Shown one piece after another: positions 3,797-29,976 of a DNA stretch of 32,000 nucleotides (position 1 is the first letter of the stretch; the number at the start of each line of letters is the position of its first letter). The stretch comes from Candidatus Brocadia sp. (GTDB lineage: Bacteria; Planctomycetota; Brocadiia; Brocadiales; Brocadiaceae). The translations under genes were made by a program, and so were the position numbers. The stretch lies in assembly GCA_021650915.1 (NCBI GenBank), contig CP091279.1, forward strand, positions 2,250,001 to 2,282,000, written 5' to 3'. Under the pieces are notes generated by a model. That model saw nothing but the letters and a program-made list of their open reading frames with translations. It did not search any database and was not told the origin of the DNA.

Positions 3797-3818
3797 CGTA
3801 AACCAGCTTAAATAAACT

Positions 3819-12220: not shown

Positions 12221-12353
12221 AAGAGTTCTGGGATCCCGGATCGTGGATTTTGGATTGCGGATTTCGGATGGTTCGGCTTCGCTCTCCACGAGTTTTTGGT
12301 TTGCGGGTTGCGGGTTTGGGAGTTGAAAGTTTGGGATTTTGGATTTATGGCTG

Positions 12354-12440
12354 GTTCAGGCTTGCAGCCTGAACCGAAACGGTTTGGTTCAATCGTTCGG
12401 CTGAGCGCTCGCGGCGGGTTTGGGTTTGCAACCCAAACCC
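12354..12440. repeat. repeat family R4 (GGTTCAGGCTTGCAGCCTGAACCGAAACGG...) followed by the palindrome GGGTTTGGGTTTGCAACCCAAACCC
   Basis: Hairpin at 12354-12376. Related copies are at 12731-12761 and 20227-20322. Confidence 0.7.
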
Positions 12441-12730: not shown

Positions 12731-12761
12731 GGGTTCAGGCTTGTAGCCTGAACCGAGACGG
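12731..12761. repeat. repeat family R4 hairpin (GGGTTCAGGCTTGTAGCCTGAACCGAGACGG)
   Basis: Same hairpin as 12354-12376. Confidence 0.7.
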
Positions 12762-12859
12762 TAAAATACAAAAATAACCCGAAACTTGTGGTGAGCGAAG
12801 TCCCTCTCTGCCGTGCAGGCACAGGCAGGAGAACCACTCAAAACTCGAACGGTGAACCT

Positions 12860-14210: not shown

Positions 14211-14272
14211 TTCCCCTCTAACAAGGGGTGTGTCATAGCTCCCCTCTATTAAGAGGGGTAACGGTGTGTGTC
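14211..14272. repeat. repeat family R5: tandem CCCCTCT-loop-AG(A)GGGG hairpins with GGTGTGTG flank
   Basis: CCCCTCTAACAAGGGG (14213-14228) and CCCCTCTATTAAGAGGGG (14241-14258). Related copies are at 15041-15085, 15268-15290 + 15543-15572, and 17844-17948. Confidence 0.75.
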
Positions 14273-14351
14273 TCGCAACTAAAAAAGGCATGGAGGGTGT
14301 ACTCCACCTTTATTCATACATACAAGGTTGAAAAGGAGGGAAAAAGTGAGT

Positions 14352-14750: not shown

Positions 14751-14797
14751 CAGTAATCTTTAATCTCCACGTGGGTTCTGGGGGCTGGAGTTTAAAG

Positions 14798-14955
14798 TTT
14801 TGTAACACTTTAGTTTTTTGAAAAATTACAATAATAACGATGTTGCCGCACGGTGTAGGGGCGAAGCATTTGCCATACATTGGCATAAAGGTATTCACAC
14901 CCCAAGCAGGCAAATGCTTCGCCCCTACCTTTTCAAAAAACTAAAGTGTTACAAA
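14798..14955. repeat. 158-bp nested palindromic element: 27-bp outer inverted arms (1 mismatch) enclosing a family R2 unit
   Basis: Outer arms are TTTGTAACACTTTAGTTTTTTGAAAAA (14798-14824) and CTTTTCAAAAAACTAAAGTGTTACAAA (14929-14955). Inner arms are GTAGGGGCGAAGCATTTGCC / GGCAAATGCTTCGCCCCTAC (14855-14928). Confidence 0.85.
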
Positions 14956-15040
14956 GTTTTGTGTTTTGAGTTGTGGGTTGAGGTTAGATGTTGGAAATTG
15001 GAGGTTGGAGTTGAGAGTTACGAATTGTGTGTTCGGGAGT

Positions 15041-15085
15041 GTGTTATAGCTCCCCTCTATTAAGAGGGGGAAGGGGGTGTGTCTT
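15041..15085. repeat. repeat family R5 hairpin (CCCCTCTATTAAGAGGGG plus GGGGGTGTGT flank)
   Basis: Near-identical to 14236-14272. This explains the shared ..CVIAPLY ends of two spurious track ORFs. Confidence 0.75.
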
Positions 15086-15290
15086 ACAGAAGCCCGAAGG
15101 GCTGAAGGCATATAGAATATAGGGTTCAGGTTGCCTGTCTGTGTGCGGCCACGCACAGGCAAGCAAACCCGCAGCAGCGATGCATTTTGTGTTGAGCGCA
15201 TGTAGGGCAGGCATTGCCTGCCTTATGTCAATCTCAATTTTCGGTAGACGGTGCCTACACTGGCTAAACACACCCCCGGCCCCTCTTAGA

Positions 15291-15542
15291 AGCTTACTGT
15301 TGGACAAAATTTCGGCTGGACAAAATGACCCTAATTGGGCGATTATCATTTAAAACAGCTAATTTTACTGGTTTTTTCGCTATTGTTTTTCGAAATTTTA
15401 GTTTAATAGACTCAACACTTTGGTAAAAAACAAGTGCTTCGCAATAGAAAATTCAATGGATTAAATGTCGTAAGTCAAAGGACAATAAGATATTTACGGT
15501 TCCTTTAACTTGTCCGGCAAAAAAATTGTCCAACAGTAAGCT
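15291..15542. mobile_element. 252-bp MITE-like element with 17-bp perfect terminal inverted repeats (AGCTTACTGTTGGACAA), inserted into the loop of an R5 hairpin
   Basis: Left end 15291-15307; right end TTGTCCAACAGTAAGCT at 15526-15542. Subterminal GGACAAAAT/TTGTCC repeats are present. The interior is AT-rich and non-coding. The flanks ACACACCCCCGGCCCCTCTTAGA and TAATAGAGGGGAATAAAGGGGTGTGT are the two halves of an R5 unit. Confidence 0.75.
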
Positions 15543-15713
15543 TAATAGAGGGGAATAAAGGGGTGTGTACATCTGGCATAGCACACCCATAACCTCTCAG
15601 GTAGGTCAACCGTCCTCGGTTGACATCATAATGACAAGCGGGGACGTCTGAAGCGCTCAGCCAAACGGTTGCAAGCCTGAACCCGCGTAAAGAAAGAGAA
15701 AGGAGGAGACCAT

Positions 15714-16700
15714 ATGAAATATGTAATCCGGCGGCAATCATTCAAGGCACATGTTACGATGTGTCTGTTCATAACGTTAATTTCTACCTTGCCATTAATA
15801 GGTTCTGCATGTACTAAAGGAGCAAGTGAACCGCTAGCACCATCACCGGACAGCCCCGTGCCCAAAGAAACGCCCAGGGAAGGTGCTGTTGAACCAACGC
15901 AATCACAGGATACAACAAGTGTTGCGAGGCCAGCGCCATCAAAGCAACCAAAGGATTCAATCGATATGTCCTCTGAGGTTAAAAGCATTGGGGGCATTAC
16001 ATGGCAGGGAGATTCTCTCTGGGTGTTGGATGATGAGAGGAAAATAATCGATCGATTTGATACTACTTTAGAGGAACTTTCCCCTGACCATAAATATTCA
16101 ATTGATCTTACACAGTCAAGCGCTTTTAGTTTGAAAAAATTCAAAGGTCTGGCCTATGACAAAGAAGCCGAAGCACTCTGGGTTGCCGCTGAAGAGACAG
16201 ATATAGATCCGAAGAAAATGGTTCCGATGCTGATTAAGATTAATCTTGTCAACAGACAGACGGAACTTATAAAGATGGAGATTCCCGCAAAGAAAGGGTT
16301 TAAGTCCATTGAGGGCATTGCATGGGACAAGAAAAGAGAAAGCCTCTGGGTTGCCATTTACGCAGGATTTTCGAGCTCATTAAATCAGATCAATCCTAAA
16401 ACCAGACAAATCACAAAAAGTATCTTCTCTGATAGTTATCCCAAAGGTATTGCAACGGATGGAGAGCATCTTTGGAGTATTTGTTACAACGGAGAGGAAT
16501 TCCCTTCCGCAATAGATCAGAGAATAATACAGCCTGAAGAGCATAAAATGTTACGTTCGCGTGAATTTATTAAAGACATACCGGAAGCAGAACCCATTAG
16601 CCTTGTTTTTGATGGTAATGATCTCTGGTATGCAGATAAAAAAACAAAGCGTGTTATAAGGTTTATACAGCCCAATAAGAAACCTCTTCAATTGAAATAA
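15714..16700 (+). CDS. lipoprotein with a 5-bladed beta-propeller (glutamine cyclotransferase/NHL-like repeats)
   Basis: Strong RBS AAGGAGGAG before ATG 15714. Signal LPLIGSAC, then a Pro/Ser-rich linker. Five repeats end in an LW motif: DSLWVLD, EALWVAA, ESLWVAI, EHLWSIC, NDLWYAD. Confidence 0.75.
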   Translation: MKYVIRRQSFKAHVTMCLFITLISTLPLIGSACTKGASEPLAPSPDSPVPKETPREGAVEPTQSQDTTSVARPAPSKQPKDSIDMSSEVKSIGGITWQGDSLWVLDDERKIIDRFDTTLEELSPDHKYSIDLTQSSAFSLKKFKGLAYDKEAEALWVAAEETDIDPKKMVPMLIKINLVNRQTELIKMEIPAKKGFKSIEGIAWDKKRESLWVAIYAGFSSSLNQINPKTRQITKSIFSDSYPKGIATDGEHLWSICYNGEEFPSAIDQRIIQPEEHKMLRSREFIKDIPEAEPISLVFDGNDLWYADKKTKRVIRFIQPNKKPLQLK

Positions 16701-16729
16701 TTGCAAGCACCAAATAAGGAGAAAATATC

Positions 16730-17761
16730 ATGCAAAGATTTTTAAAGAGATTTTCCTATATCTTTATGATATGCCTTGTCCTTTCCGGAGGCTGTATCAC
16801 AGTTGAATACAGACGTGGACCTATTCCAGAACATCTGTCAATGGGGGAACATGCTCATAGTTGTTATTGTGGTTGTTGTGATATATCTGGACCTCGACCA
16901 CCACCTGTCCTATCACCCGCATCCGAATATAAACATGCCGTGTTAATCTGTGCAGGGGTAACGAATGCAGACCGACAAAGGTATAATTCAGCATATTGGT
17001 ATGATCTTATGAGTCAATATCTGATGCTGAGAGAGCGTGGGTTTAATGATGAGAATATTCATGTACTTTATGGTTATGATGGAGAAGATTACTATCCCGG
17101 ACTTTTAGATTATAACTCTGCACATTTGTTTGGTAAGAAAATTACTGATATGGCTATTTCTAAAGCGAATATTGAATCAGTATTCCAGGCATTAGGTGGT
17201 AAAAGAAGTGATGTAAATTGTGTAAGTCGTGCCCTAACTGATGAGGATTATTTGTATATCTGGTGGATGGGCCACGGCGGTTCTGATCCAGGTACTTGCA
17301 ATCTTTACTTGCCCATTAGTGTTACGGGTGAAGAATTTACTGACGTAGAATTGAGTAACTGTATTAATCAGGTTTCTCATTATAAAAAAAGAGTTGTCGC
17401 CGTAATGACCTGTTTCTCGAGTGGTATTCTCGATGATATGATAAACGAAAAAGGTGTTAATACAGTTACCCTTGCTTCATCATCCTGTGACGAATATTCA
17501 TATGATATCTGGCCGACCTGTGATCGCCGTCCTCATGCAGAATTTAATTATAAACTCACAGAGGCCATACGTCAGATGGATATATGCAATAAGCCACTTA
17601 AAAAAGATCCAGATACTAATCCAAAAGATGGTTATGTATCACTGGCGGAGGCATGTGATTATATTGCGCCGCCAATGAGAAACCCAACGGCCCCTCGCAA
17701 AATTAGTGACCCTGATAAGATAAGTGATTCGACTTATTTTAACGAGCCAAATACGCCTTAA
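16730..17761 (+). CDS. clan CD cysteine peptidase, legumain (C13)-like, lipoprotein-type signal
   Basis: 343-aa ORF with signal MICLVLSGGC. Candidate catalytic His is in YIWWMGHGGSD and Cys in VVAVMTCFSSG, in the His-then-Cys order and spacing typical of the caspase/legumain fold. HAVLICAGV matches the N-terminal beta-strand. Confidence 0.65.
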   Translation: MQRFLKRFSYIFMICLVLSGGCITVEYRRGPIPEHLSMGEHAHSCYCGCCDISGPRPPPVLSPASEYKHAVLICAGVTNADRQRYNSAYWYDLMSQYLMLRERGFNDENIHVLYGYDGEDYYPGLLDYNSAHLFGKKITDMAISKANIESVFQALGGKRSDVNCVSRALTDEDYLYIWWMGHGGSDPGTCNLYLPISVTGEEFTDVELSNCINQVSHYKKRVVAVMTCFSSGILDDMINEKGVNTVTLASSSCDEYSYDIWPTCDRRPHAEFNYKLTEAIRQMDICNKPLKKDPDTNPKDGYVSLAEACDYIAPPMRNPTAPRKISDPDKISDSTYFNEPNTP

Positions 17762-17843
17762 AGTTCACACGAGGGGGATGGAATAGAGTAGTTTTTAACA
17801 CAGCCCTTGATCTCTGCCAGCAAGGACGCACAAGAAACAGCTA

Positions 17844-17948
17844 ACACACCCCCGGCCCCTCTTTTTAGAGGGGAGGATAAAGAACACACCTCCGGCTCCT
17901 CTGCCTGTGCGTGTTCACACGCAGACAGGTCTTGATAGAGGGGAGATC
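17844..17948. repeat. composite of R5 hairpins, one carrying an inserted CCTGTGCGTG..CACGCAGACAGG hairpin
   Basis: CCCCTCTTTTTAGAGGGG (17857-17874), then CTCCTCT-[GCCTGTGCGTGTTCACACGCAGACAGGTCTTGAT]-AGAGGGGAG. Confidence 0.65.
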
Positions 17949-17993
17949 ATGGCGTTTCCCGTGTAATCTCATAAAACTCTTTTACGGGAGGGA

Positions 17994-18386
17994 ATGGATA
18001 TGAAGAGCAGATATGTGTTTTTTGTGGGGGGAGGTGTAGTCTTATGTTTGTTACTGAGTATGACAGTTGCGATTTCAAAGGCATACGCAATACCAGGAAC
18101 AGTTTCAGGAACAGTCAGGGATGACTTTGAGAAGGATGGATATGAAACAAGCGATCCTCCCTTATCACCGAACCCAGCCCTTAGGCCAAGTATGCGTCTT
18201 CTTATTGGTTCTAATGTCATTGCTGGCCCAGTTAATAGAACCCCTGAGGGGATGTATACGTTTGCAGCATTGCCAGGTAACTATACGGTAGAGGCCTCGT
18301 GTTCTGGTTTTGTGACACAGACTCAACCAGTAACAATAATTTCCGGCGGCGGTACAACAAAGAACTTTGGACTGCAACGTCCGTAG
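17994..18386 (+). CDS. small secreted protein with a CarboxypepD_reg-like beta-sandwich domain
   Basis: Signal peptide ...MTVAISKAYA|IPG. The second ATG at 18000 has better RBS spacing after GGGAGGG. The domain reads GTVSGTVRDD...EGMYTFAALPGNYTVEASCSGFVTQTQPVTI. Confidence 0.7.
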   Translation: MDMKSRYVFFVGGGVVLCLLLSMTVAISKAYAIPGTVSGTVRDDFEKDGYETSDPPLSPNPALRPSMRLLIGSNVIAGPVNRTPEGMYTFAALPGNYTVEASCSGFVTQTQPVTIISGGGTTKNFGLQRP

Positions 18387-18471
18387 TACCCGTTCGTTTT
18401 AGGCTACGGGTTTATTCACACAAATTTTTAAGCAGCATGATTCACCCACGAATAGGGGAAGGAGGAAAACC

Positions 18472-19572
18472 ATGAAACAATACTCTGAAAATGAACTAGA
18501 TGTTTTGTTGGACATCCTTGAAAGGTATGATAAGGAATTACAGGTTGAAGGTGTCTATTATATGGATGTTGGATACAGATTTAAAGATGGACAGCGGGAC
18601 GATCAACTAGTGTGCAGACATATTAATTACAAATTATATATTGTGGACAATTTTAGCTATATCGCGCCGTAAAACAGCATTTATATGTTTCGTTATTAAT
18701 ATGTCTCTACACTAGCAATACGTGTTCATACGAAGGCAAAACCGAGGAGTACCGTGGACGTGTCGAAACAGATCCCTGAAATAATAGAAGGACATCCTAC
18801 TTGCGTGATCAAATATAATTCTCAGACACCCCCAGTGGAAGTCCCTGCAGATGTGCGAATACGTGATATTCAAAATAATTGGCAAAGACGTAATCAGCGT
18901 TTTGAGACTTTAGTAGGGGGCATTGCAGTCTGGAATTCTCAATTCAAGCACGAGTGTCAAATCCCCGGTACGCTTGGAGCAATAGTCTTTCATGCTGCCA
19001 CCTCGCAATTTATGGGCTTATCAAACTATCATGTCCTCGTTCTCAATAAACAGGGAAAGGCAGAAGGGAAAAAAGGAGATACTATTATGCAGGGGAACTT
19101 TAATGAGTACCCCCCTAATCGGAATAATAGCATTGGCACTCTTTTCAAATGGAATAAGAAACTCGACTGCGCCATTTGTGCTTTAAGAGATTATTCGGAG
19201 GTGGGAGAGATTTTAGACTGTTCTAAGAGACCACAAGGGGCAATATCACCTCTGGTGGGGATGAAAGTCATCAAATCCGGCATGGCAACGGGACTTACCC
19301 GCGGGATTGTTGATGGTGTTAGCCGTACGGATAAATCATTTACCGTGATTCCTGATCCTGGTAATCCAAGTCCTACCGGTGAAATTAGCACTGGTGGGAA
19401 TTCTGGTTCTGTGTGGCTGGAATTTGAAAGTTTTTGTGCCGTAGGACTTCATTATGATGGAGAAAAGAACTCAGACCCAGGAGCTGAAAGAGCGTGGGCG
19501 AAGCAGATGACTGAGGTGGCGAAAGAGTTAGAGATTGAATTTACAACAGGGATCACAGAGATACGTGTATGA
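18472..19572 (+). pseudogene. chymotrypsin-fold (S1) serine protease interrupted by a 105-bp MITE insertion
   Basis: ORF 18472..18672 and ORF 18754..19572 share a frame. Deleting 105 bp (element plus one copy of the duplicated CTAG) joins ...YRFKDGQRDDQL to AIRVHTKAKPRSTVDVSKQIPEII... without a stop. Catalytic candidates are His in LSNYHVLV, Asp in LDCAICAL and Ser in GGNSGSVW. A GTG restart at 18754 could still yield a truncated product. Confidence 0.75.
18607..18715. mobile_element. 109-bp MITE-like element, copy 1 (21-bp terminal inverted repeats CTAGTGTGCAGACATATTAAT / ATTAATATGTCTCTACACTAG)
   Basis: The reverse complement matches 22352-22460 at 103 of 109 positions. It is flanked by, or ends in, CTAG. 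It supplies the premature TAA (18670-18672) that truncates the protease ORF. Confidence 0.85.
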
Positions 19573-19905
19573 AGAACAAACGTGTCCTGAGCGTGCCTCA
19601 TGCGGGTTCTGGTTTGTCTGCCTGTGCCTGCACGGCAGACAGAAGGCGGCTCTTACCATAAAAGTCGTTGCCAACCAGCCCTGACAGGGTTGATTCACGA
19701 CAGCCCCCTATTTTCCCCCCATTTCTCCGAGTACTCCGTGTCCTCTGTGTGAGTTGCTACAAATAAGTATATCATTACCCGATGATGGGAACACATCTTG
19801 ACTTTACCTTCTGTTTCTGATACTTTTGCTTCTGGCAATGGTTTTCATTTTTAGTCTTGCAACAAGTATGATAACAGCTATAGTGAAAGACAAAAATAAG
19901 TCCTC

Positions 19906-19990
19906 ATGCGATGAGCGGAGCGACGAAGCAATCGCTGTAATAGATTGCTTTGCTGTCGTTCGCAATGACAATGCATGTATACTTATTTAA
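19906..19990. repeat. repeat family R6 (..GAAGCAATCGCTGTAATAGATTGCTTTGCTGTCGTTCGCAATGACA..ACTTATTTAA)
   Basis: A related copy is at 23722-23835 (GCCGTCGTTCGCAATAACA...ACTTATTTAA). Confidence 0.6.
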
Positions 19991-20021
19991 AACGCTGCTT
20001 ATAATAAAAAAGGCCGGATAG

Positions 20022-20201
20022 ATGGGTAAACAACAATTTTTAAGGCAGATAAGAAGTTTTGAAGACCTTATTCTCAAGCATACCGAAAAGATGGAAAAGG
20101 AAAAGGCTAAACCGGTACCATACGATTCGGTTTCACCGCTGCCTTTTTTCGCTCCGCATTTCTCTCCGGTAATCAAAAAGGTTCTTACCGTTTTCCTTTA
20201 A
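20022..20201 (+). CDS. hypothetical 59-aa protein (below the ORF-track length cutoff)
   Basis: My translation: MGKQQFLRQIRSFEDLILKHTEKMEKEKAKPVPYDSVSPLPFFAPHFSPVIKKVLTVFL. The RBS is weak and I recognise no family. It may be non-coding. Confidence 0.25.
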   Translation: MGKQQFLRQIRSFEDLILKHTEKMEKEKAKPVPYDSVSPLPFFAPHFSPVIKKVLTVFL

Positions 20202-20226
20202 AAATCATCTGATAATTACCCCACGC

Positions 20227-20322
20227 TGGTTCAGACTTTGCCACGCATGCCCGGCAGAGCGATTGGCAGCCTGAACCGAAACGGCATGATTCACTCGTTC
20301 GACTCTGTGCTCACGACGAAGT
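20227..20322. repeat. repeat family R4 copy (..CAGCCTGAACCGAAACGG..TCGTTCGACTCTGTGCTCACGACGAAGTC)
   Basis: Parallels 12354-12417. The CTGTGCTCACGACGAAGTC part also occurs inverted at 6178-6200. Confidence 0.6.
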
Positions 20323-20329
20323 CTGCACG

Positions 20330-22351
20330 GTGATAACCAGTTGAGGGAGGCGTGCCTTGAAGTATGGGATACCTAAGTGGTTGAAAATATCACCTCTGCG
20401 AGCCTAAATCCTCGTAGAGAAGTTTGTACCTATGCGTATACAAAGGAGCAATCCGTATGCGGAGAAAGATGGCGTATTCCCGTGAAGGGTATGACGGAGT
20501 TACGAGGTACAGACGACCTTTTGGGGTGTATGAGTATGGCGTGTTAGTTCGTGCCAACTGCCCCTTCTCAGTAAAGCACTGACAAATGTCCTTGTTGGAG
20601 ATGATGCAAGCGATTCGGTGAAAACATCTCTGGATAATGCGTTTGAACATACATCACGAAGGGAAAAGGGGTAATCCATATGACCGGGGGAGGACTTACG
20701 TCTTGGGAAGAAATTCCCTAACAGCGAGGTATAAGGGAAATCCGAAATCCAAGCTGTATGAGATGGTGACGGACGACTGGCTCTCACAGGTCTGTCTTTG
20801 AAGTCGTCAGCATTGCTCATAATAGTTTCTGGTGTGTACCAGGAATGAAGGGGCATAACCGTAGTGGAGTTGATGAAACGTGGTAGATTGAATACGTTCC
20901 ATGAGAAAAGAGACTCTTTGCATGGGCAAGTAGTAGCAAGAGACTCTCTTGTTTTGCCTCTGTCAGGAGGAATCTCGACTCAGGAAACACGATTGACAAG
21001 TCTATTATCCGGAATCAATCAAAAGGAACATATCGGGAGATGCTTAAGTATCATTCTTTAAGAGACAAGGTATTCAGTCTGAGAAACCTTTATGCGGCTT
21101 TTGGGCACGTAAAGAAGAATAAAGGCAAGGCTGGTCTCGACAGGGTAAGTATTAAGCAGTTTGAAAGTGACCTTGAGAATAATCTACAAGCTATTCACAA
21201 GGAACTGAAAACCGCCATATACAACCCTGCGCCCGTCTTAAGGGTCTACATTCCCAAAGGCAGGCATGGCAAGAGACCTCTTGGCATTCCCATTGTCAAG
21301 GACAGGGTAGTACAGCAGGCGTTCAGACAAATCATAGAGCCAATATTCGAGAAAGAATTCTCGGATAACAGCTTTGGATTTCGTCCAAACAGATGCTGTC
21401 ATGATGCTATCAAACGGATTGAACAGTATAAGCAGCAAGGGTATCGGAACATTTTGGACGCCGATATAAAGGCGTTCTATGACACCATACCTCACAAGCT
21501 TATCATGAACTCCTTGCGTGAGAAAATCGCTGACGGATGGGTTTTGAACAGTATCGAGAACATGCTCAAGGCAGGGGTCATGGAGAACGGCATCGTGCAC
21601 GAGACAAATCAAGGCACTCCGCAAGGAGGCGTCATATCCCCCTTGCTTGCAAACCTTATCGGTGACATCATCGACAAGGAGCTTGAAAAGGCAGGATATA
21701 AATTTGTCCGCTATGCCGATGACTTCGTTGTCATGACTAAAACGAAAGAAGAACTCCCTGCCGCCCTTCAGTACGTCAAAGAAATCATTGAAGGGAAACT
21801 TGAAATGAAGCTGCGCGAGGATAAAACCAGGCTCACCAACTTCAAACGAGGCTTCCGGTTTCTTGGATATAATTTCATGGGCAAGAACAAGGGTGTAAGC
21901 ATGAAATCCCTGGACAAACTCAAGGACGCCGTCAGAGACATCACCAAACGCACACAAGGCGTCAACCTGCAAGCCGTCATTGATACATTAAATCCTGTCA
22001 TAAGGGGACATGTCAACTATTTTCGGCTGGGCAATGTACAAACGGTATATCGCTCGTTAGACTGCTGGGTACGCATGAGACTGAGAAGTTTCAAGTTTTC
22101 GAGAAAATGGAAAACTGACAACAAACGTTTCCCGGTACACCGATTCTTTAAGATGGGGTTACTCTCATTTGAAAGAGAATTTCTTAAGGCACGTGCGAAG
22201 GCATGATAGTTTACTTTTCTCTGCTCCAGAGCAACACTATGGGGTCGCTAACTACGGGAAAGCCGTATGGTTTAAAAGGATACTTTGTCACGTTGTCCAA
22301 AGTATCTGGCGACGATTGGGGGTTGGAGGCGATTCGCCTCCTTCCTACCAG
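20330..22351 (+). mobile_element. group II intron (ribozyme domains I-IV upstream of the RT ORF, short 3' tail); boundaries approximate
   Basis: About 700 nt of non-coding sequence precedes the RT. It has segments resembling group II domain I/III strings remembered from Ll.LtrB (GGUAUAAG; GUAGUAG...CAUGGGCAA). A ~145-nt structured tail follows the ORF (hairpins at 22273-22306 and 22325-22341). I could not fold a canonical domain V or place GUGYG / AY ends confidently. Confidence 0.6.
21040..22206 (+). CDS. group II intron reverse transcriptase/maturase, lacking the En (HNH) domain
   Basis: 388-aa ORF. RT motifs: RVYIPKGRHGKRPLGIP, FGFRP, DADIKAFYDTI, GTPQGGVISPLLANL, the YADDFVV active site, and the X/maturase motif LNPVIRGHVNYF. 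There is no C-terminal zinc-finger/HNH. Confidence 0.9.
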   Translation: MLKYHSLRDKVFSLRNLYAAFGHVKKNKGKAGLDRVSIKQFESDLENNLQAIHKELKTAIYNPAPVLRVYIPKGRHGKRPLGIPIVKDRVVQQAFRQIIEPIFEKEFSDNSFGFRPNRCCHDAIKRIEQYKQQGYRNILDADIKAFYDTIPHKLIMNSLREKIADGWVLNSIENMLKAGVMENGIVHETNQGTPQGGVISPLLANLIGDIIDKELEKAGYKFVRYADDFVVMTKTKEELPAALQYVKEIIEGKLEMKLREDKTRLTNFKRGFRFLGYNFMGKNKGVSMKSLDKLKDAVRDITKRTQGVNLQAVIDTLNPVIRGHVNYFRLGNVQTVYRSLDCWVRMRLRSFKFSRKWKTDNKRFPVHRFFKMGLLSFEREFLKARAKA

Positions 22352-22460
22352 CTAGTGTAGAGACATATTAATAACGAAACATATAAATGCTGTTTTGCAG
22401 CACTATATAACTATAATTGTCCACAATATATAATTTGTAATTAATATGTCTGCACACTAG
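22352..22460. mobile_element. 109-bp MITE-like element, copy 2, inverted relative to copy 1
   Basis: The outer 45 and 41 nt are 100% identical to the reverse complement of 18607-18715. All 6 differences fall in the central 18 nt. It ends 68 nt upstream of the rlmN start. Confidence 0.85.
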
Positions 22461-22527
22461 TCGCACTGCCGGGCGGATTTACCTTTGCCCTACGCAATGA
22501 AGGTTCTGGTTGCAATGGCGCTACGCT

Positions 22528-23604
22528 ATGGATAAAACAAAGTTATTATCAATTACCAATATGTCTTTATCGGAACTGGAGGCATGGTGCACCTCTCTGG
22601 GGGAACCTACTTACCGGGCGAAACAGATGCTTTCATGGGTTTATGATAAGGGGGCAATGGCCTTTGACCAGATGTCTAACCTGCCTAAAAATTTTCAAAA
22701 ACACCTGGCCGGGCAGCGCCGGGTCTTTCAGACGAGCATTAGCGACATTACACAAACTGCCTATGGCACAGAGAAGTTCCTGGTGCATGTATCCGATGGA
22801 AATGTGATCGAATGTGTATTGCTCAGGGAAGGCAAAAGGACCACGGTGTGCATCTCAACCCAGGTAGGATGCGCCATGGCGTGCCAGTTCTGTGCCAGCG
22901 GTCTCCCTGGTCTTGAAAGGAACCTTACCACCGGTGAGATCGTTGAACAGGCACTCCATGTGAAAAATCATCTTCCCCGGGAAGAACGCATTACCAACAT
23001 TGTCTTTATGGGTATTGGCGAGCCGCTCATGAACTATGATAACGTTATCAAGGCTGCCCGGATTATGAATGCCGAATGGGGATTCGGCATCGGGGCGCGT
23101 CATATTACGATTTCAACGGTGGGTATTATCGACGGTATCCGCCGGCTGGCGCATGAAGGGCTTCAGATAAATCTGGCAATATCCCTTCATGCGCCCGACG
23201 ATAGGATACGGTCGAAGATAATCCCATCGAATAAAAAAATCGGCGTTAAAAATCTCATAGCGGCGGCCAGGGAATATTTCGAAACTACGCGACGGGATAT
23301 CAGCTTTGAATATCTCTTGATCGATGGCGTCAATGCATCCCGACAGGACGCAGAGTCCCTGGCACGATTGCTGAAAGGCATGCAATGCAACATAAACGTT
23401 CTCCCCGTGAATCCCGTTGAAGAATTTCACTGGCGGCCGCCTTCCCGTGAAACGATTGAAACCTTTTGCAGAATGCTGGAAAACCATGGCCTCGTCGTTA
23501 CGCTCCGGAAGAAAAAGGGAAGCCACATTAACGCGGCATGTGGTCAGCTCCGTCTGCAACGGCAGAAATTTTTATGGAAAAACCAGGAACATTGTGTTAA
23601 ATAA
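22528..23604 (+). CDS. rlmN: 23S rRNA (adenine2503-C2)/tRNA methyltransferase, radical SAM
   Basis: I prefer ATG 22528 (MDKTKLLSITNMSLSELEAWC..). Hallmarks are YRAKQMLSWVY, the radical SAM cluster motif CAMACQFCASG, GIGEPLMN and a C-terminal ACGQL. Confidence 0.92.
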   Translation: MDKTKLLSITNMSLSELEAWCTSLGEPTYRAKQMLSWVYDKGAMAFDQMSNLPKNFQKHLAGQRRVFQTSISDITQTAYGTEKFLVHVSDGNVIECVLLREGKRTTVCISTQVGCAMACQFCASGLPGLERNLTTGEIVEQALHVKNHLPREERITNIVFMGIGEPLMNYDNVIKAARIMNAEWGFGIGARHITISTVGIIDGIRRLAHEGLQINLAISLHAPDDRIRSKIIPSNKKIGVKNLIAAAREYFETTRRDISFEYLLIDGVNASRQDAESLARLLKGMQCNINVLPVNPVEEFHWRPPSRETIETFCRMLENHGLVVTLRKKKGSHINAACGQLRLQRQKFLWKNQEHCVK

Positions 23605-23721
23605 AAGGGAGCGGTTTTTTTTGAAAAACCCCCATAATGACAATATTTATCATGCGGGTACAGGAAAAGCATGGGTCAGTTTGGGTATGAAGTATTTATA
23701 TCTATCGTAAACGCAAAAAGA

Positions 23722-23835
23722 AAGTTGTCATTGTAAGGGCGTTAGCCCAAAGCAATCTCAAGAATGGGACTGTTTCGCCGTCGTTCGCAATAACACGCTT
23801 TTTCATAGATGACTATCGCATGTCAACTTATTTAA
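23722..23835. repeat. repeat family R6 copy
   Basis: GTCATTGTAAGGGCGTTAGCCCAAAGCAATCTC...GCCGTCGTTCGCAATAACA...ACTTATTTAA. Compare 19906-19990. Confidence 0.55.
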
Positions 23836-24007
23836 GGCGTTTCCGATATGTATAACAAATATTTCATCCTTGCTTTTTCCAAAAGTAAAACGGGTACTAA
23901 TTTTTTTACCATTTCCAGGGAAAGGAGGGGTGGGTCGGAGTCGGTTGTCTTTTCTGTATAACGAGGGTTTCGTACACTTTGAGATATAAAGAATAAGGAG
24001 AAGAAAT

Positions 24008-24196
24008 ATGCGAGCAAAAGTAGATCCTGATATCTGTACGGGCTGTGAACTTTGCACCCAAACGTGTCCTGAAGTTTTTTATATGAAAGGAGACGTGGCT
24101 GAAGCGAAAAATGCCGACGTGCCTGCTGGAAGTGAAGATCTTTGCAGACAGGCGGCTGAGGAATGCCCGGTAGAAGCAATAATCATTCAAGATTAA
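24008..24196 (+). CDS. small single-cluster ferredoxin
   Basis: 62-aa ORF MRAKVDPDICTGCELCTQTCPEVF...CRQAAEECPVEAIIIQD. The CxxCxxC...CP pattern matches small Fe-S ferredoxins. Confidence 0.85.
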   Translation: MRAKVDPDICTGCELCTQTCPEVFYMKGDVAEAKNADVPAGSEDLCRQAAEECPVEAIIIQD

Positions 24197-24205
24197 TGAA
24201 ACGGT

Positions 24206-24252
24206 AAAAAAAAGACCTTACATAACCTTGTTGCGATATGTAAGGTCTTTTT
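24206..24252. terminator. bidirectional intrinsic terminator shared by the convergent ferredoxin and rpmH genes
   Basis: AAAAAAAA-GACCTTACATA (24214-24224), 12-nt loop, TATGTAAGGTC (24237-24247)-TTTTT. Confidence 0.75.
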
Positions 24253-24351
24253 ATCGTAGTGTTGCACATCTGTTTCTTTTTGAGGTGTGTTTTTTTAATA
24301 CTCTCTTCAACCTCTTTCCAGCGGTGGCTATGAGGCACTCCGTATCACGTG

Positions 24352-24489
24352 CTATACATCGAGAAGAGGCCTTCTGCCGATTCTTCTTCTTCTCTTTAAA
24401 ATTGCCCTGCCACCCTTGGTACGCATTCTTTTTCGGAAGCCGCACATTTTTTTGTGTTTTATAGAACTTTTTCTGATATTGACCTTCAT
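24352..24489 (-). CDS. rpmH: 50S ribosomal protein L34
   Basis: Not in the ORF track (45 aa). My reverse-strand translation is MKVNIRKSSIKHKKMCGFRKRMRTKGGRAILKRRRRIGRRPLLDV. It matches the L34 pattern (..HGFRxRMxTxxGRxVLxRRRxKGRxxL). Confidence 0.85.
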   Translation of the reverse strand: MKVNIRKSSIKHKKMCGFRKRMRTKGGRAILKRRRRIGRRPLLDV

Positions 24490-24652
24490 GCCTGTATATC
24501 TCCTCAAAATTTTTAAGAGACTTAAAAATAAATTCTATCGGTTATACAATATAATATTTATTCATCTTTTGTCAAGACATTTTGAAATGCGTTTGAGTTA
24601 AAGTGTTTTTCCTGCTGCTTAAATTTAGACCTCAAAAAGTGTTAAAATCGTA

Positions 24653-24681
24653 TTGACATTAATCTTTTGAATTGATAATAT
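24653..24681 (+). promoter_or_regulatory. sigma70-type promoter candidate for the IHF/HU-like operon
   Basis: TTGACA (24653-24658), exactly 17 nt of spacer, then TAATAT (24676-24681). It lies ~170 nt upstream of ATG 24850 in an AT-rich gap. Confidence 0.5.
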
Positions 24682-24849
24682 GTCGCAATTAATCATAAAT
24701 AATATGTCTGGAAATTAGTTAAGACTACGGCACATTTTCTTGCTTTCCTTCTGAAACAAAGGGGTTGATATTTTGTTTTGAATGGCCATCCGTATGGATC
24801 TTCCATAAAACTACCACCACATATCTATCGTTATAAAAGGAGAATTGTA

Positions 24850-25167
24850 ATGCAAACAACGACAAAAAGAGACCTATGCGAGAAGATTGCCCGAAGAACG
24901 GATAACACCCATATGGTCGTAAAGAAAACGATCCAGATGTTTTTGGACGAGATTATCAGTGAGCTTGCACAAGGCAATCGTATCGAACTCCGTGATTTCG
25001 GGGTTTTCGAAATACGGCAACGCGCCGCGCGGAAGGCAAGGAACCCGAGAACCGGTGAGGTAGCTTTTGTGCCAGCCAAAAATGTGGTGGTATTTAAAGT
25101 TGGAAAATTGATGCGGGAAAAGGTTGGTGGCCCAACCCAGGCACAACAACCTACCCAAGGAACTTAA
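24850..25167 (+). CDS. HU/IHF-family DNA-binding protein
   Basis: I prefer ATG 24850, after AAAGGAG. TKRDLCEKIARRT....VKKTIQMFLDEIISELAQGNRIELRDFGVFEIRQRAARKARNPRTGEVAFVPAKNVVVFKVGKLM has the canonical IHF/HU arm (R-N-P-x-T). Confidence 0.88.
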   Translation: MQTTTKRDLCEKIARRTDNTHMVVKKTIQMFLDEIISELAQGNRIELRDFGVFEIRQRAARKARNPRTGEVAFVPAKNVVVFKVGKLMREKVGGPTQAQQPTQGT

Positions 25168-25171
25168 GGTG

Positions 25172-25651
25172 ATGGTATCTGACCTATTTAAACAAAAAGA
25201 GCGTTTTGAAAAGGGTATCGTCAGACGTCTGAATGGCAGCTACGCAACGGTGGAAATCCTAAGGAAGAATTCACCGGAATGCACAAACTGCAGCAGTTGT
25301 GCAGGGGCTGATGACAAACCCCAGCTTTTCGAGGTTAAGGCATTTCCCGGTTTGAAGGCGGGTGAGCGCGTAACGCTTCAAACAATCGGGCATTCTCCTT
25401 ATACGGGCATGATTCTCATTTTCATCCTTCCGCTTGTTAGCCTTGTAATGGGCAGTTTCCTAGGGAGAAAATGGCATTTTCTCTATCCTAATTCGTCCGA
25501 TGTCAGAATGATCAGTTGCGGTTTCATCTTTTTTCTGTTGTCCCTTGTGGCGGTAAGTATCTACGAAAAAACGATGCGACATCAGAAACGAATAGGGCGG
25601 AAAATCATCTCCAGAGACACGCGGGATAGCATCAATCTAATTCCAGGCTAG
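25172..25651 (+). CDS. RseC/MucC-family membrane protein (SoxR-reducing system RseC-like)
   Basis: I prefer ATG 25172 (MVSDLFKQ..). The N-terminal OB-like part has a Cys cluster (ECTNCSSCAG), followed by two TM helices (GMILIFILPLVSLVMGSFL; CGFIFFLLSLVAVSIY). Confidence 0.65.
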   Translation: MVSDLFKQKERFEKGIVRRLNGSYATVEILRKNSPECTNCSSCAGADDKPQLFEVKAFPGLKAGERVTLQTIGHSPYTGMILIFILPLVSLVMGSFLGRKWHFLYPNSSDVRMISCGFIFFLLSLVAVSIYEKTMRHQKRIGRKIISRDTRDSINLIPG

Positions 25652-25720
25652 CAGCCATATCTTTCACCATTGTCTCTGAATTCTATAATCTCGTATTACC
25701 TTTTTCATCAGCGTGCATTT

Positions 25721-27877
25721 ATGGAAAGTAGACTAGATTTAGATACAGAATTTGGAAATCTTGCCATTTCTGAAGGATTCATAACACCAGCGCAGGCATC
25801 TTCCTGTCAGCGCATTGCTGATACCTTTGGGGGTGAATACTCACGAAATAGCCTTGATGCCGTCATGGTAGAACGTGGTTATATCACACCGGAACAAAGG
25901 GATAGCCTCTTAAAAATTCTGGGAATTACCTTCGTTTTCTGTCCCTATTGTAAAAAAGGGTTCAAAGAGGCAGACACCGACATTCAGGAGATCATGTATT
26001 GCAAACATTGCGAGAAAAGCTTTGAATACCAACATGCCGACCAGATGGACATGCATCAGGCATCGATAACATCCGGAAAAACCCTCGCCTCTTTTCATCA
26101 GCAAACCTGCGATTTTTATATTGGTAAATTGTTGGGGGATAAATATGAAATCGTGGAAAAAATTGCGGTGGGAGGCTGGAGTACCATCTATAAGGCCAAG
26201 AGAAAGATGCTGGACATTGATGACGTTGTCGCAATGAAAATATTGCACGTAAACCTGAGAGAAAACCCCCAGGATATCAAACGATTTTATAATGAAGCAG
26301 CGACGATCTGTGAACTACGCCACCCCAATGCTATTTATCTGTATGATTTTGACCGGGACGCACAGGGCACGATTTATATGGCAATGGAGTTTGTCCATGG
26401 TAAAAATCTGAAGGAAATCATCAGAGATAACGGCCCAATCACGGTGGCAAGAATGTTGCACATTATTTTCCAGGTATGTGATGTTATATCGGCAGCTCAC
26501 AAACACCCAAAAAAGATCATCCATCGGGATATTACTCCCCAGAATATCATGTTATCCCGGGTGGGAGAGGCGGACGATTTTGTAAAAGTCCTGGATTTTG
26601 GAATAGCAAAACTTTGGTTGCACGACCATGTATCTCTCACCGGAAGCATTGTAGGAACCCCCCTTTATATGGCGCCTGAGCAATGGGAGGGCGGGTGCGA
26701 TGAAAGGACGGATATCTATTCTCTGGGAATCATTATGTATGAAATGTTAACGGGAGAAACGCCCTTTCAAGGCGATCAGGTAGTATTAATGAATAAACAC
26801 TTACATGCAAAACCACTACCTTTCCGGAGGTTAAACAAAAAATTAGCGGTGCCCCCCTACATCGAACGCATTATTCTCAAATGTTTGGAAAAAAATAAGG
26901 ACAAGAGACCCCAATCGGTAGATGAGCTAAAATCATTGCTACAAAATGAGCAAAGCAGCACAACATCAATATTCTCAACGTACCCCAGCCGAACCGTTCT
27001 GGTTATGATACTTATCCTTCTCCTGATCCCCCTCACACTTTACCCGTTCTTTTGGCCTGGCAGAGATAAGAAAGATATCCCGTCCCTCACGGAAAGTGTT
27101 TCCACCCACAAGGAATCTTCCCAGAAAATACTGGCATTCCAGAAGAACGATAGCGGCAACAGGTATAAAGTCCCGGATAACGCCGGAGAACTCTTTTTCA
27201 GTGAAGAGTTCAATAGAGCCTATGAATTCTACAAGACATGCTTCAGTCAAAAACCCGTTCTCACTCCACCGGATAACAACAATAACGGCTCCAAACACAT
27301 CGTGGCCACGAAGCTCCTCAACAAAGATTCTCCAGACAAAGGGATCGACCTGGTTCAAGAATATGACCCCGGTGCAGATTATAAAAAACCAGTACCGGAC
27401 ACGAACGAACCCATAAAAAATGAAATACAAGAGTGGTTGCAGAATTATAAAAAGGCATGGGAAATGGCAGACATTGAAGCCTTAAAAGAACTGGGAGAGA
27501 TCTCTTCAAAAAAGGAGGAAAAGAAGCTGAGGAAGCATTATTCCTATGTGAACTATGTTACCGTCTCCATTCAAAATGTAGTAATCGATGTACAGGAGGA
27601 TGGCTGTCAGGCTGTCATTAGTTTTGACCAGGAGGACGAATGGACCGACGAAAAAAGCAACCGGCACAGAAAAGTTCCGCCAAGGATAACAAAAATCCTT
27701 CGAAAGGAAGATGGCGCATGGAAAATCGAGAAAATAACGGATCAGACGAGTAGACAGGCAATGCTGTATAAAAAATATAAACACCTTTGGGATGGTATTG
27801 CCCTGAGATATGATAATTTCAAGAAAAGGGTCAAGCTCTCATTGCTACAGCCAGAAAGAACGAATCGCAGCAATTGA
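25721..27877 (+). CDS. membrane Ser/Thr protein kinase with an N-terminal zinc-ribbon region and a C-terminal extracytoplasmic NTF2/SnoaL-like domain
   Basis: I prefer ATG 25721. Zinc ribbon: CPYCKKGF...CKHCEKSF. Hanks kinase motifs: VAMKIL, HRDITPQNIML, DFGIAK, MAPEQ. TM segment: VLVMILILLLIPLTLYPFFW. C-terminus: IQEWLQNYKKAWEMADIEALKEL...DGAWKIEKI is NTF2-like. Confidence 0.88.
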   Translation: MESRLDLDTEFGNLAISEGFITPAQASSCQRIADTFGGEYSRNSLDAVMVERGYITPEQRDSLLKILGITFVFCPYCKKGFKEADTDIQEIMYCKHCEKSFEYQHADQMDMHQASITSGKTLASFHQQTCDFYIGKLLGDKYEIVEKIAVGGWSTIYKAKRKMLDIDDVVAMKILHVNLRENPQDIKRFYNEAATICELRHPNAIYLYDFDRDAQGTIYMAMEFVHGKNLKEIIRDNGPITVARMLHIIFQVCDVISAAHKHPKKIIHRDITPQNIMLSRVGEADDFVKVLDFGIAKLWLHDHVSLTGSIVGTPLYMAPEQWEGGCDERTDIYSLGIIMYEMLTGETPFQGDQVVLMNKHLHAKPLPFRRLNKKLAVPPYIERIILKCLEKNKDKRPQSVDELKSLLQNEQSSTTSIFSTYPSRTVLVMILILLLIPLTLYPFFWPGRDKKDIPSLTESVSTHKESSQKILAFQKNDSGNRYKVPDNAGELFFSEEFNRAYEFYKTCFSQKPVLTPPDNNNNGSKHIVATKLLNKDSPDKGIDLVQEYDPGADYKKPVPDTNEPIKNEIQEWLQNYKKAWEMADIEALKELGEISSKKEEKKLRKHYSYVNYVTVSIQNVVIDVQEDGCQAVISFDQEDEWTDEKSNRHRKVPPRITKILRKEDGAWKIEKITDQTSRQAMLYKKYKHLWDGIALRYDNFKKRVKLSLLQPERTNRSN

Positions 27878-27906
27878 CACCAGGAAGAATTTCCGTAAAC
27901 AATAGA

Positions 27907-27936
27907 AATCCTTGCGGCAAAGGATTACCTTTTTTG
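27907..27936 (+). terminator. intrinsic terminator for the kinase gene, overlapping the shc stop codon
   Basis: AATCCTT (27907-27913), loop GCGGCA, AAGGATT (27920-27926), then ACCTTTTTT. Confidence 0.5.
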
Positions 27937-29976
27937 AAGGGCATTGCGGTATTTGCTCAACGCGAGAAGAGGAAAATAGGTGCAGTACATATGATATTTC
28001 AGATAAAAGACCTTGGGGAAACCCGTTGCCGTAAATTCCGTTTCATCCCAGCTTCCGTCTTCTTTTTGAGTCGCCAGGAGGAATTTAATTCCCTTTTCCA
28101 GGGCATCAGGTCTCGTCTCCCCACCTGCAAGTAAGGCTAACAAAGCCCATGCCGTTTGTGAAGGCGTGCTCTTCCCAATTGCCTTGAGGAATGGATCATC
28201 ATAGGACTGAATGGTCTCACCCCATCCGCCATCAGAATTCTGAACACTTTTCAACCACTCCATAGCGCGCCGGATATAGGGCATAGTCATGTCTTCCCCA
28301 ATCGCAGAAAGTCCGGAAAGTACGGACCACGTACCATAAATATAATTTGCGCCCCAGCGGCCAAACCACGAACCGTCTTTTTCCTGCTCTTTCCGGAGAA
28401 ACGCTACTGCCTTTTGGATATCCTGAGAGGACTTGCCAAACCCTATGCGGCCTAAAAAGTCGATACACCGGGCGGTAACGTCACTCGTGCTCGGATCCAA
28501 TAAAGCATTAAAATCTGCAAACGGAATATGATTTAAAAGGGTCTTGTTGTTGTTGCGGTCAAATGCACCCCACCCACCGTCATCGCATTGCATCGCCAGA
28601 ATCCATCGCATTCCGCGCAAAAACGAAGACTCTTTGCGAGCGGTTTCCGGCAGTGATACCCGTTGTAATGCCATGAGGACAGCGGCGCTGTCATCGGTAT
28701 CGGGGTAAAACTCATTTGCATATTGAAAGTACCAGCCGCTTGGCTCGTCGACCTTGCATTTCAAAGCCCAATCACCGAAATTCCTCACTTCCTTGCTGAG
28801 AAGCCACCGTCCAGCCCTTTGTAACGCAGGATCAATGCTGGGAACCCCGGATTCATGGAGCGCAATAATCGCCCATGCGGTATCCCATACCGGCGATACG
28901 CACGGTTGCAGGTACAGCCTGTCGCCCTCGCAGACAACCAGATTTTCTATATCTTTCAGCTGCTTTGCCAGCGCCGGATGATCATCCGGATAGCCAAGAC
29001 ACTTCATGGCAAAAATCGAGTTAATAATTGCCGGCCAGATAGCGCCAAGTCCGCCAGATTTCTCCAGATGATCCAGCATCCATCTTTCCGCTTTGCGAAG
29101 GGCAACTCTCCGAATGCATTGAATGGGTTGTTGTTCGTAGCGTCTGAAAATACTGTCAGCGTCAATAAAGAAATTACGCCAGCTCAAACCCGCTTGATCC
29201 CGCTTAATGCGGTAAACAACCTTTTCGCGCGGCACGACGTAGAGCTCTTTCAGCAAATCATCCCCAACGGGAATATGAGGTTTTTTTGCTATGGCAATAG
29301 AGAGCGGCACCACAATGCATCTCGACCAGTAAGACATCTCATAAATACTAAAGTAAAATCCGGGGGGAAACAGGATCATTTCAGCAGGAACGGCGGGCAC
29401 AGCCCGCCAGTCAACCTGCCCAAACATGGCAAGGTAAATCTTCGTGAAGCAGTTGGCCTTCATAATGCCTCCCTTATCGAGAATGCATCTTCTGGCCCTC
29501 TGCATGAAAGGTTCGTCTGCGGGATACCCCGCCAATTTCAGGGCAAAATACGCTTTTACCGAAGCGCTGATTTCACTAGGACCCCCGTAGTAAATATTCC
29601 AGCCACCGTCGGGAAGTTGATGGTCTCTGAGGAGATGCGCAGCCATTTTTTGTTTCTCATGATCTATCTTCCCAAGAAAATGCATGAGCATAATATAATC
29701 TGACGTTATGGTTGTGTCCGCTTCTAAAATTCCTACCCAATGCCCATCGGACCGATCTTGCTTCCTGAGAAGGTACTGCTGCGATCTGATGATTCCCGTA
29801 TCCAAAGGATTTTTTCCTGCCAACGGCGGAGTGATGCTTGTCCTTACCGGCATACTTTCAAATCGTAAATTCTCCTTCGGTAATTCAGGAACGGGATGCT
29901 TCCCGTTTCCGTTTCCATTGAATTTATAAATACTTGTTTCTAATCGCTCAAACAGGTTTAATAAAAAATTTCTCAT
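27925..29976 (-). CDS. shc: squalene-hopene cyclase
   Basis: 683-aa ORF with repeated QW motifs (e.g. QxxDGGWG, QNSDGGWGE, QKEDGSW) and the catalytic DxDD motif in YPDTDDSAAVL. Confidence 0.93.
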   Translation of the reverse strand: MRNFLLNLFERLETSIYKFNGNGNGKHPVPELPKENLRFESMPVRTSITPPLAGKNPLDTGIIRSQQYLLRKQDRSDGHWVGILEADTTITSDYIMLMHFLGKIDHEKQKMAAHLLRDHQLPDGGWNIYYGGPSEISASVKAYFALKLAGYPADEPFMQRARRCILDKGGIMKANCFTKIYLAMFGQVDWRAVPAVPAEMILFPPGFYFSIYEMSYWSRCIVVPLSIAIAKKPHIPVGDDLLKELYVVPREKVVYRIKRDQAGLSWRNFFIDADSIFRRYEQQPIQCIRRVALRKAERWMLDHLEKSGGLGAIWPAIINSIFAMKCLGYPDDHPALAKQLKDIENLVVCEGDRLYLQPCVSPVWDTAWAIIALHESGVPSIDPALQRAGRWLLSKEVRNFGDWALKCKVDEPSGWYFQYANEFYPDTDDSAAVLMALQRVSLPETARKESSFLRGMRWILAMQCDDGGWGAFDRNNNKTLLNHIPFADFNALLDPSTSDVTARCIDFLGRIGFGKSSQDIQKAVAFLRKEQEKDGSWFGRWGANYIYGTWSVLSGLSAIGEDMTMPYIRRAMEWLKSVQNSDGGWGETIQSYDDPFLKAIGKSTPSQTAWALLALLAGGETRPDALEKGIKFLLATQKEDGSWDETEFTATGFPKVFYLKYHMYCTYFPLLALSKYRNALQKR

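Follow-up and report, generated by a model that had tools for sequence, protein, structure and literature searches.

Two inverted repeats around a protease remnant and a group II intron

The DNA considered here is a stretch of 32,000 nucleotides (contig CP091279.1, positions 2,250,001 to 2,282,000; hereafter the window), part of the closed 4,046,273-bp genome of Candidatus Brocadia sp., an anaerobic ammonium-oxidizing (anammox) bacterium whose genes carry the locus tags L3J18_. On its forward strand lie, in order, a broken NAL1-like gene of the trypsin-fold serine protease family (18472–19572), a small open reading frame (ORF) of 59 amino acids (20022–20201), a group II intron (20350–22353) encoding a reverse transcriptase (RT), and the methyltransferase gene rlmN (22510–23604). 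Two copies of a 109-bp repeat, which we identify as a miniature inverted-repeat transposable element (MITE), are found among these genes: copy A (18607–18715, forward strand) within the protease gene, and copy B (22352–22460, reverse strand), inverted with respect to copy A, between the intron and rlmN. An earlier note, made from the sequence alone, had described the two copies as bracketing a segment that holds the protease body, the small ORF and the intron with its RT. This inventory is correct, as is the term MITE that it used; the note had further suggested that the bracketed segment might invert, or might behave as a composite element. The source genome is ~99.97% identical to that of B. 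fulgida, in which (assembly GCA_000987375.1) contig LAQJ01000307 (L026) corresponds to window positions 14893–20401 at 99.96% and contig LAQJ01000232 (L051) to 22329–28605 at 99.98%.

Direct reading and pairwise alignment confirm that 18607–18715 is identical to the reverse complement of 22352–22460 at 103 of 109 positions, as had been reported, and a repeat finder returned the pair as inverted arms of 111 nt, 95% complementary and spaced by 3634 nt. In the alignment of the two copies, likeness ends one base beyond each CTAG. The element proper (18610–18712, 103 nt, in copy A; 22355–22457 in copy B) is flanked by TA duplications, at 18608–18609 and 18713–18714 in copy A, where they lie within CTAG...CTAG, and at 22353–22354 and 22458–22459 in copy B. 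The window holds four occurrences of the terminal 18-nt motif, where 0.10 would be expected, and an inverted 109-bp pair of this kind is far above chance expectation. The six mismatches, at element positions 47, 51, 57, 59, 62 and 64, all fall within an 18-nt core, its two versions being TTAGCTATATCGCGCCGT and ATAGTTATATAGTGCTGC, a clustering with P ~3e-4 under uniform placement. The earlier note had placed the differences in the same 18 nt and given the same core strings on the other strand; the identical outer blocks, which it had put at 45 and 41 nt, are 46 and 45 nt long. Each copy carries 34-nt imperfect terminal inverted repeats (TIRs) that are 82% complementary according to the repeat finder, and as single-stranded DNA both copies form long hairpins on either strand. 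Stops interrupt each of the three forward frames of copy A, and the element, 103–109 nt in length, is without coding capacity.

Copy A is a simple insertion that inactivated the protease gene. The ORF at 18472–18672 enters the MITE and ends there at an in-frame stop, the interruption falling after codon 45-46, and the protease body follows at 18754–19572 as a C-terminal ORF of 270 amino acids (L3J18_10095). When 105 nt, comprising the element and one copy of the duplication, are deleted, the two ORFs fuse in frame into a protein of 331 amino acids and a single CTAG is left. The restored protein has 169 database matches, and intact homologues of 318–329 amino acids, one of them from Ca. Jettenia, cover 97–99% of its length; in the alignment the junction coincides with a conserved LAIRVH motif and its codons read CAA-CTA-GCA-ATA. 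When a profile of the family was compared with known structures, it matched the NARROW LEAF 1 serine proteases at E ~4e-9 and, weakly, alpha-lytic protease, and the label "protease" is a reasonable one for this gene. A metagenomic contig of 1,492 nt (WBZY01031256.1, L022) carries part of the protease gene together with MITE A (window 18526–19771, 99.7% identity) between two unrelated flanks; this may be a second genomic context, a strain rearrangement or a chimera.

The intron beside copy B is 2004 nt long, multicopy and IIC-like. Its RT/maturase (21040–22206, forward strand, 388 amino acids, UJS19272.1) is without an endonuclease domain, matches the Pfam families RVT_1 (2.6e-40) and GIIM (1e-16), and passes TIGR04416 with 400.6 bits (cutoff 300); among solved proteins, group IIC RTs match it best. 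The cluster of this protein at 90% identity has 58 members, at least 15 of which are in the source genome. Copies of the intron were compared from the window, L009 (two copies), L013, L019, L037, L038, L040, L041, L052 and L053, where L numbers denote retrieved loci. Nine copies in unlike flanks set the bounds of the intron, from GCGUGCC... to ...CUACCAGCU, beyond which the sequences part; a domain VI (DVI)-like hairpin with a bulged A at 22347 lies near the 3' end. The element thus has both a maturase (X) domain in its RT and precise ends that are common to copies in different flanks, as expected of a group II intron. The base after the intron is A in seven of the nine copies, and the junction itself reads CTAG in four.

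This last feature bears directly on copy B. Its intron-side CTAG consists of the last two bases of the intron (CU) and the first two of the exon (AG), and once MITE B is deleted in silico the junction reads ...CCAGCU|AGUCGCACUG. The TA duplication left the intron intact, followed by one original exon base. Because the CTAG target of copy B is made up of the intron end and the 3' exon, the intron must be the older of the two: its insertion preceded that of MITE B and made the CTAG that the MITE prefers. We considered the opposite order, MITE first and intron second, and rejected it, since the intron would then have to supply the left CT of the MITE by chance; in addition, IIC-type introns have a structured target in the 5' exon and not in the 3' exon. 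The junction between MITE B and rlmN is also present in B. fulgida LAQJ01000232 and in one Logan contig. The gene rlmN encodes a radical SAM 23S rRNA/tRNA methyltransferase (Pfam RlmN_N and Radical_SAM) and starts 50–68 nt 3' of MITE B. A scan of 18300–22700 for sigma-70 promoters and terminators remained at background level (10 sites against 7.8 expected), and a weak promoter-like site inside the MITE gives no evidence of an outward promoter.

A MITE family and its IS630-family partner

The copy census is a terminal-motif scan of metagenomes, which returned 17 loci, nearly all from the assemblies WBZY01 and WBZR01. Fourteen of the 17 carry full-length copies, at 12 distinct sites. One of these sites (L022) is copy A itself; the other 11 have flanks with no relation to those in the window. 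There are therefore at least 11 further solo copies at unrelated sites on WBZY01 and WBZR01 contigs, all in the form CTAG...CTAG, and every full-length copy, over 13 distinct sites, has CTAG, with its TA, at both ends. A scan of the GTDB representative genomes with the terminal 18-mer gave only single chance matches in unrelated taxa, the source genome evidently lying outside that collection, and Rfam holds no family for the MITE, returning only a weak miRNA-like hairpin match.

Comparison of these copies places A and B in different subfamilies, which we call A-type and B-type mosaic. Copy A is identical at 109 of 109 positions to the copy at L013, and copy B is likewise identical over 109 of 109 positions to the copy at L019, both at unrelated sites. 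Each of the six differences between A and B is a family-wide polymorphism found in two to nine other copies, and copy B combines A-type arms with a core as in L009. Of the 45 site pairs in the family that are informative, 21 do not pass the four-gamete test. The arms vary as well, at positions 6, 8, 25 and 102, and C/T transitions account for four of the six A/B differences in the core, which is CG-rich. The confinement of divergence to the core is therefore a matter of mosaic subfamilies, which arose either through recombination between family members or through repeated C/T changes in the CG-rich core. The earlier note had called this pattern odd, and statistically it is; it is, however, a property of the family and not peculiar to this pair.

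Three loci carry the autonomous partner of the MITE or a remnant of it. At L042 there is a complete insertion sequence (IS) of 1,154 bp, counting its CTAG flanks, with a perfect 21-bp TIR, CTAGTGTAGAGACATATTAAT. The earlier note had proposed a search for an IS whose ends match those of the repeat, and this element is such an IS: its ends, GTGTAGAGACATATTAAT, match one MITE arm at 18 of 18 positions and the other at 16 of 18. Over longer stretches, the left end of the IS agrees with one arm at 34 of 35 positions and the right end with the other at 21 of 23. At L011 and L023 an IS630-type transposase gene starts 43 nt inside the end that matches the MITE arm at 34 of 35 positions. The IS has two ORFs, the first matching the Pfam families HTH_32 and HTH_23 and the second DDE_3. 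ORF1 scores 66.9 bits on NF033545 (IS630 family transposase) over profile positions 2–107, and an intact relative of ORF2, 219 amino acids in length, scores 131.8 bits on the same model, above the cutoff of 100. In the genome from which the window comes, UJS19081.1 and UJS19082.1, the latter annotated as IS630 family transposase, belong to the 90% protein clusters of the two partner ORFs. On the strength of these sequence matches, we regard the 1,154-bp IS as the autonomous partner of the MITE family, with its proteins encoded in the source genome.

The MITE assignment thus draws on small size and lack of coding capacity, TIRs, a target duplication with an empty site that can be restored, multiple solo copies flanked by CTAG, and ends held in common with an autonomous element. 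CTAG was also present at every IS site examined, including those of distant relatives with 86–90% transposase identity. An IS remnant at L017 ends in ...CACTA|C, that is, TA followed by C in place of CTAG, and this flank points to TA as the duplicated unit. A 4-bp duplication of CTAG, as in IS5-type elements, was also considered and seems less likely; the partner transposase is of the IS630/DDE_3 type and the L017 flank reads TA|C. In a separate set of contigs (L045–L050, ENA ERZ136929xx), a related IS630 element with 86% identity in ORF2 lies between repeated GTTTCAATTCCTTATAGGTTCAATGAGAC units, and looks like an insertion into the clustered regularly interspaced short palindromic repeat (CRISPR) array of another organism.

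Origin of the pair

We consider that the pair arose by two independent insertions of MITEs from one IS630-derived family, which do not form a unit, and assign this reading a probability of about 0.87. The ~103-bp family would have arisen by internal deletion from the 1.15-kb IS630/Tc1-mariner-family IS of the same Brocadia genome, and an IS630-type transposase acting in trans would bind the conserved TIRs, excise the element and paste it into a TA, here always within CTAG, with duplication of the TA. Copy A entered the CTA-GCA (Leu-Ala) codons of the NAL1-like protease gene and truncated it; copy B, of the other subfamily, entered the CTAG at the joint of the intron (...CCAGCU) and its 3' exon (AG...), ~50 nt 5' of rlmN. 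That the two copies are inverted and 3.6 kb apart is incidental in a genome so rich in repeats: for 13–30 copies in 4.05 Mb, chance alone predicts 0.14–0.8 pairs within 3.7 kb. The earlier note had held that many unrelated solo copies, together with a lack of orientation variants, would argue for a coincidental bracket, and this is largely what we find, with many such copies and no variant among the contigs that span either one.

Mobilization in trans by the partner transposase and the cut-and-paste chemistry are suggested by analogy with IS630 and ISY100. The latter transposes by cut-and-paste into TA in vitro (PMC2170065), and IS630 is cited as inserting at TA within CTAG and duplicating the TA (Tenzen & Ohtsubo 1991, as cited in PMC2170065). 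The Brocadia partner resembles these elements in its length of ~1.15 kb, in its helix-turn-helix and DDE_3 transposase matching NF033545, and in its CTAG flanks; it differs in that the window contains only the non-autonomous derivative and that the transposase genes of the sampled Brocadia elements are split and frameshifted. The closest described analogue of the MITE is RUP of Streptococcus pneumoniae, a noncoding, multicopy element of ~107 bp with IS630-Spn1-like ends and a TA target, often found in or near mobile elements, for which mobilization by IS630-Spn1 has been proposed (PMC2229807). Like RUP, the Brocadia element is short (103–109 bp), has IS630-like ends and a TA/CTAG target, and one of its two window copies abuts a mobile intron. 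The hosts, however, are a planctomycete and a firmicute, the Brocadia TIRs are longer (21 bp are common to MITE and IS, and the imperfect repeats inside the MITE reach 34 bp), and there are 108 RUP copies compared with at least 13 Brocadia sites; no sequence relationship is expected.

Several points weigh against this account. Transposition itself we infer from analogy, and the copy numbers come from related metagenome assemblies and not from the source genome. At the window sites a TA duplication is indistinguishable from a CTAG duplication, 2-bp and 4-bp duplications giving the same picture, and TA is preferred on account of one flank, at L017, together with family precedent. Furthermore, in the partner elements at L011 (833–1977), L023 (1–1145) and L042 (1–1154) ORF1 is separated from ORF2 by the same break, which falls at an A-rich run (FLKK/NDCKPWRK), and all three have a second frameshift near the C-terminus. 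The partner IS may accordingly be defective or may depend on programmed frameshifting; the breaks may reflect programmed frameshifting combined with decay, or the lineage may be defective and yet go on supplying ends.

The suggestion of a composite transposon, in which both MITEs and the enclosed 3.6 kb move or have moved as one through their outer ends, fits the geometry of the locus, where two copies of the same element flank the block and both outer ends are of the same arm type (GTGTGCAGACATATTAAT), oriented inward-to-outward. There is also precedent, as composites flanked by IS630 are cited as able to transpose (Tenzen & Ohtsubo 1991, as cited in PMC2170065) and composite-like structures flanked by MITEs are known from Acinetobacter, where MITE pairs surround class 1 integrons and MITE-297 surrounds a 76-kb region (PMC6382973). 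In those structures, as in the window, two copies of one MITE bracket several kb of other DNA; theirs, however, is cargo found in several contexts, whereas the Brocadia segment is of one piece with the DNA around it and either MITE is accounted for by a target site of its own. The enclosed DNA is native to the flanks: copy A separates the 5' part of the protease gene, on its outer side, from the 3' part on its inner side, and the two are collinear and in frame once 105 nt are removed. The inner flank of copy B is the junction of a pre-existing intron, which accounts for its own target site, and the two copies belong to different subfamilies. No second MITE-bounded block was found among the loci retrieved, nor any sign that the block was inserted relative to its surroundings or recurs elsewhere; L022 does hold part of it, but neither of the boundaries there (window 18526 and 19771) coincides with a MITE end. 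The outer TA duplications, which every copy has, say nothing on this question. As an account of the origin of the locus, the composite is thus disfavoured, unsupported and also contradicted, and we regard it as extremely improbable. Local homogenization of the arms by gene conversion between A and B, or selection on this particular pair, would account for the significant clustering of the differences (P ~3e-4), and the mosaicism of the family, with its four-gamete failures and the combination of A-type arms with an L009 core in copy B, is compatible with recombination among copies. To that extent the earlier proposal of gene conversion is compatible with the four-gamete result. A conversion between A and B specifically is unneeded, however, as the exact mosaic of copy B occurs at L019 and the sequence of copy A at L013, so that both represent transposing lineages; the arms of the family are not invariant, and recurrent C/T mutation in the core is an alternative to recombination. 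We therefore consider a local conversion event very improbable.

Inversion of the segment 18716–22351 in some cells, by RecA-dependent recombination of the 46- and 45-nt blocks and with effects on rlmN or the RT, has in its favor the 94.5% identity of the inverted repeats, which include two blocks, each 45 nt or longer, without a mismatch; in principle this length is sufficient for homologous recombination. A Logan contig (L027, SRR28201750, positions 1–700) moreover links the flank of the L009 MITE locus to the protease body through a hybrid MITE, with the left arm and core of the L009 type and the right end of the A type, and is 100% identical to the window outside the MITE; if real, it would represent an exchange between MITEs. 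The switch, however, falls within a 36-nt stretch that is identical in both copies, which makes L027 most likely a chimera. The k-mer of the assembler is likely 31, shorter than this stretch, and we did not accept the contig as proof of recombination between MITEs, judging it a probable de Bruijn chimera. Nor does L027 carry the rlmN flank that an inversion between A and B would predict. Both junctions in the window are as simple insertions predict, with no inversion fixed. The window orientation is seen in all four contigs that run from one window flank through a copy into the other, among them L026 and L022 across copy A and L051 across copy B; the window, the LAQJ01 contigs and WBZY01 all have the same junctions. 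Eight other Logan contigs simply stop in the stretch where L027 switches, ~28 nt in from the inner end of copy A, and one (L036) stops 28 nt in from the end of copy B that faces rlmN; these are uninformative as to orientation. The earlier note had also envisaged that inversion would detach the protease body from its 5' end; because the gene has already been broken by copy A and is a pseudogene, an inversion would detach nothing functional. There is at best a slim chance that A and B recombine at low frequency in Brocadia populations, flipping the 3.6 kb, in which case L027 would be a real product at another pair of copies. Were this so, it would amount to MITE-driven structural polymorphism, with the intron, its RT and the protease remnant switching strand beside rlmN.

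The intron fold, neighbouring repeats and implications

In Rfam searches, including the Intron_gpII and D1–D4 models, the intron gave no group II match, not even with its last 186 nt alone at E<=10, and neither did four related intron copies. The 3' end nonetheless has a conserved predicted fold. Over eight copies (window 22242–22353, L013, L037, L038, L040, L041, L052 and L053), 96.3% of cells are paired and there are eight compensatory pairs; none of 500 shuffles was as good, and slid controls reached 34–47% pairing. The fold consists of a closing stem (GUCGCUA/UGGCGAC), a domain V (DV)-like hairpin that has a GAAAG loop and carries a 2-nt bulge, an extra hairpin whose GUUGUC loop is conserved, and the DVI hairpin, in which the bulged A22347 lies 6 nt from the intron end. 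The DV-like hairpin appears to sit within a three-way junction with the extra hairpin. Canonical domain V has strands of 14 and 16 nt. If the closing stem is stacked on the DV-like hairpin, the strands would likewise be 14 and 16 nt with ~35 nt inserted in the 3' strand, and the domain V of this intron may thus be interrupted by an insertion of ~35 nt. Compared with group IIC introns such as GsI-IIC and the Eubacterium rectale IIC intron, the Brocadia intron is similar in that its RT is short, lacks an endonuclease domain and best matches the solved IIC RTs, and in being compact (2.0 kb), multicopy and intergenic, some copies having stem-loops in the 5' exon. It differs in being unseen by the Rfam group II models at E<=10, in the DV-like hairpin that seemingly sits in a three-way junction with an extra hairpin, and in its 5' end, GCGUG as opposed to GUGYG.

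Several other features occur around these elements. Other assemblies annotate the small ORF between protease and intron as a gene; it has no family match. Just 5' of the intron, on the forward strand, a dispersed repeat at 20255–20323 ends 27 nt before the insertion site; it consists of a hairpin, GGTTCAGGC...GCCTGAACC, followed by TTCAATCGTTCGGCTGAGCGCTC, with further copies at 12353–12416, 12732–12762 and, inverted, 6178–6206, and a related copy in the flank shared by L027 and L009. Short G/C-clamped hairpin repeats (AGCTCCCCTCTATTAAGAGGGG...) are found in intergenic positions and both orientations at 3871–3900, 14225–14273, 15036–15084 and 17846–17875, and in L040 similar CCCCC...GGGGG hairpins precede the site where the intron inserted. 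Positions 14794–14960 hold a second MITE-like element (~167 nt), which has 31-nt TIRs that are 94% complementary and a 94% identical copy at L009 5858–6009. Another dispersed repeat, at 3697–3833, has a 96% identical copy at L010 7375–7511 and a partial copy (95%) at L017 462–518, adjoining the IS630 remnant. A direct repeat of 97 nt (9033–9129 and 11492–11588, 76% identity, 2.5 kb apart) lies in a G+C-richer stretch and probably marks paralogous gene segments. The only Rfam match in the window at gathering threshold is a c-di-GMP-I riboswitch aptamer (RF01051) on the forward strand at 5931–6041, with 53.5 bits against a gathering score of 35.

The pair of MITEs leaves the understanding of how such elements work unchanged, and is best seen as ordinary mobile-element litter. 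For assembly it has practical consequences, as the 109-bp repeats and the 2-kb intron are points at which short-read Brocadia assemblies break or are mis-joined, a matter relevant to the quality of metagenome-assembled genomes. The insertion of MITE A explains why the NAL1-like protease gene is annotated as a 270-amino-acid fragment only. At copy B the mobile elements are nested, the 3' junction of the intron, often CU|AG, yielding the CTAG that the MITE favors. A literature search on Brocadia MITEs and introns and on the WBZY and WBZR accessions found no relevant report, and the IS630-derived MITE family and its parent IS are previously undescribed in anammox bacteria; they are thus an addition to the mobile-element inventory of these organisms.

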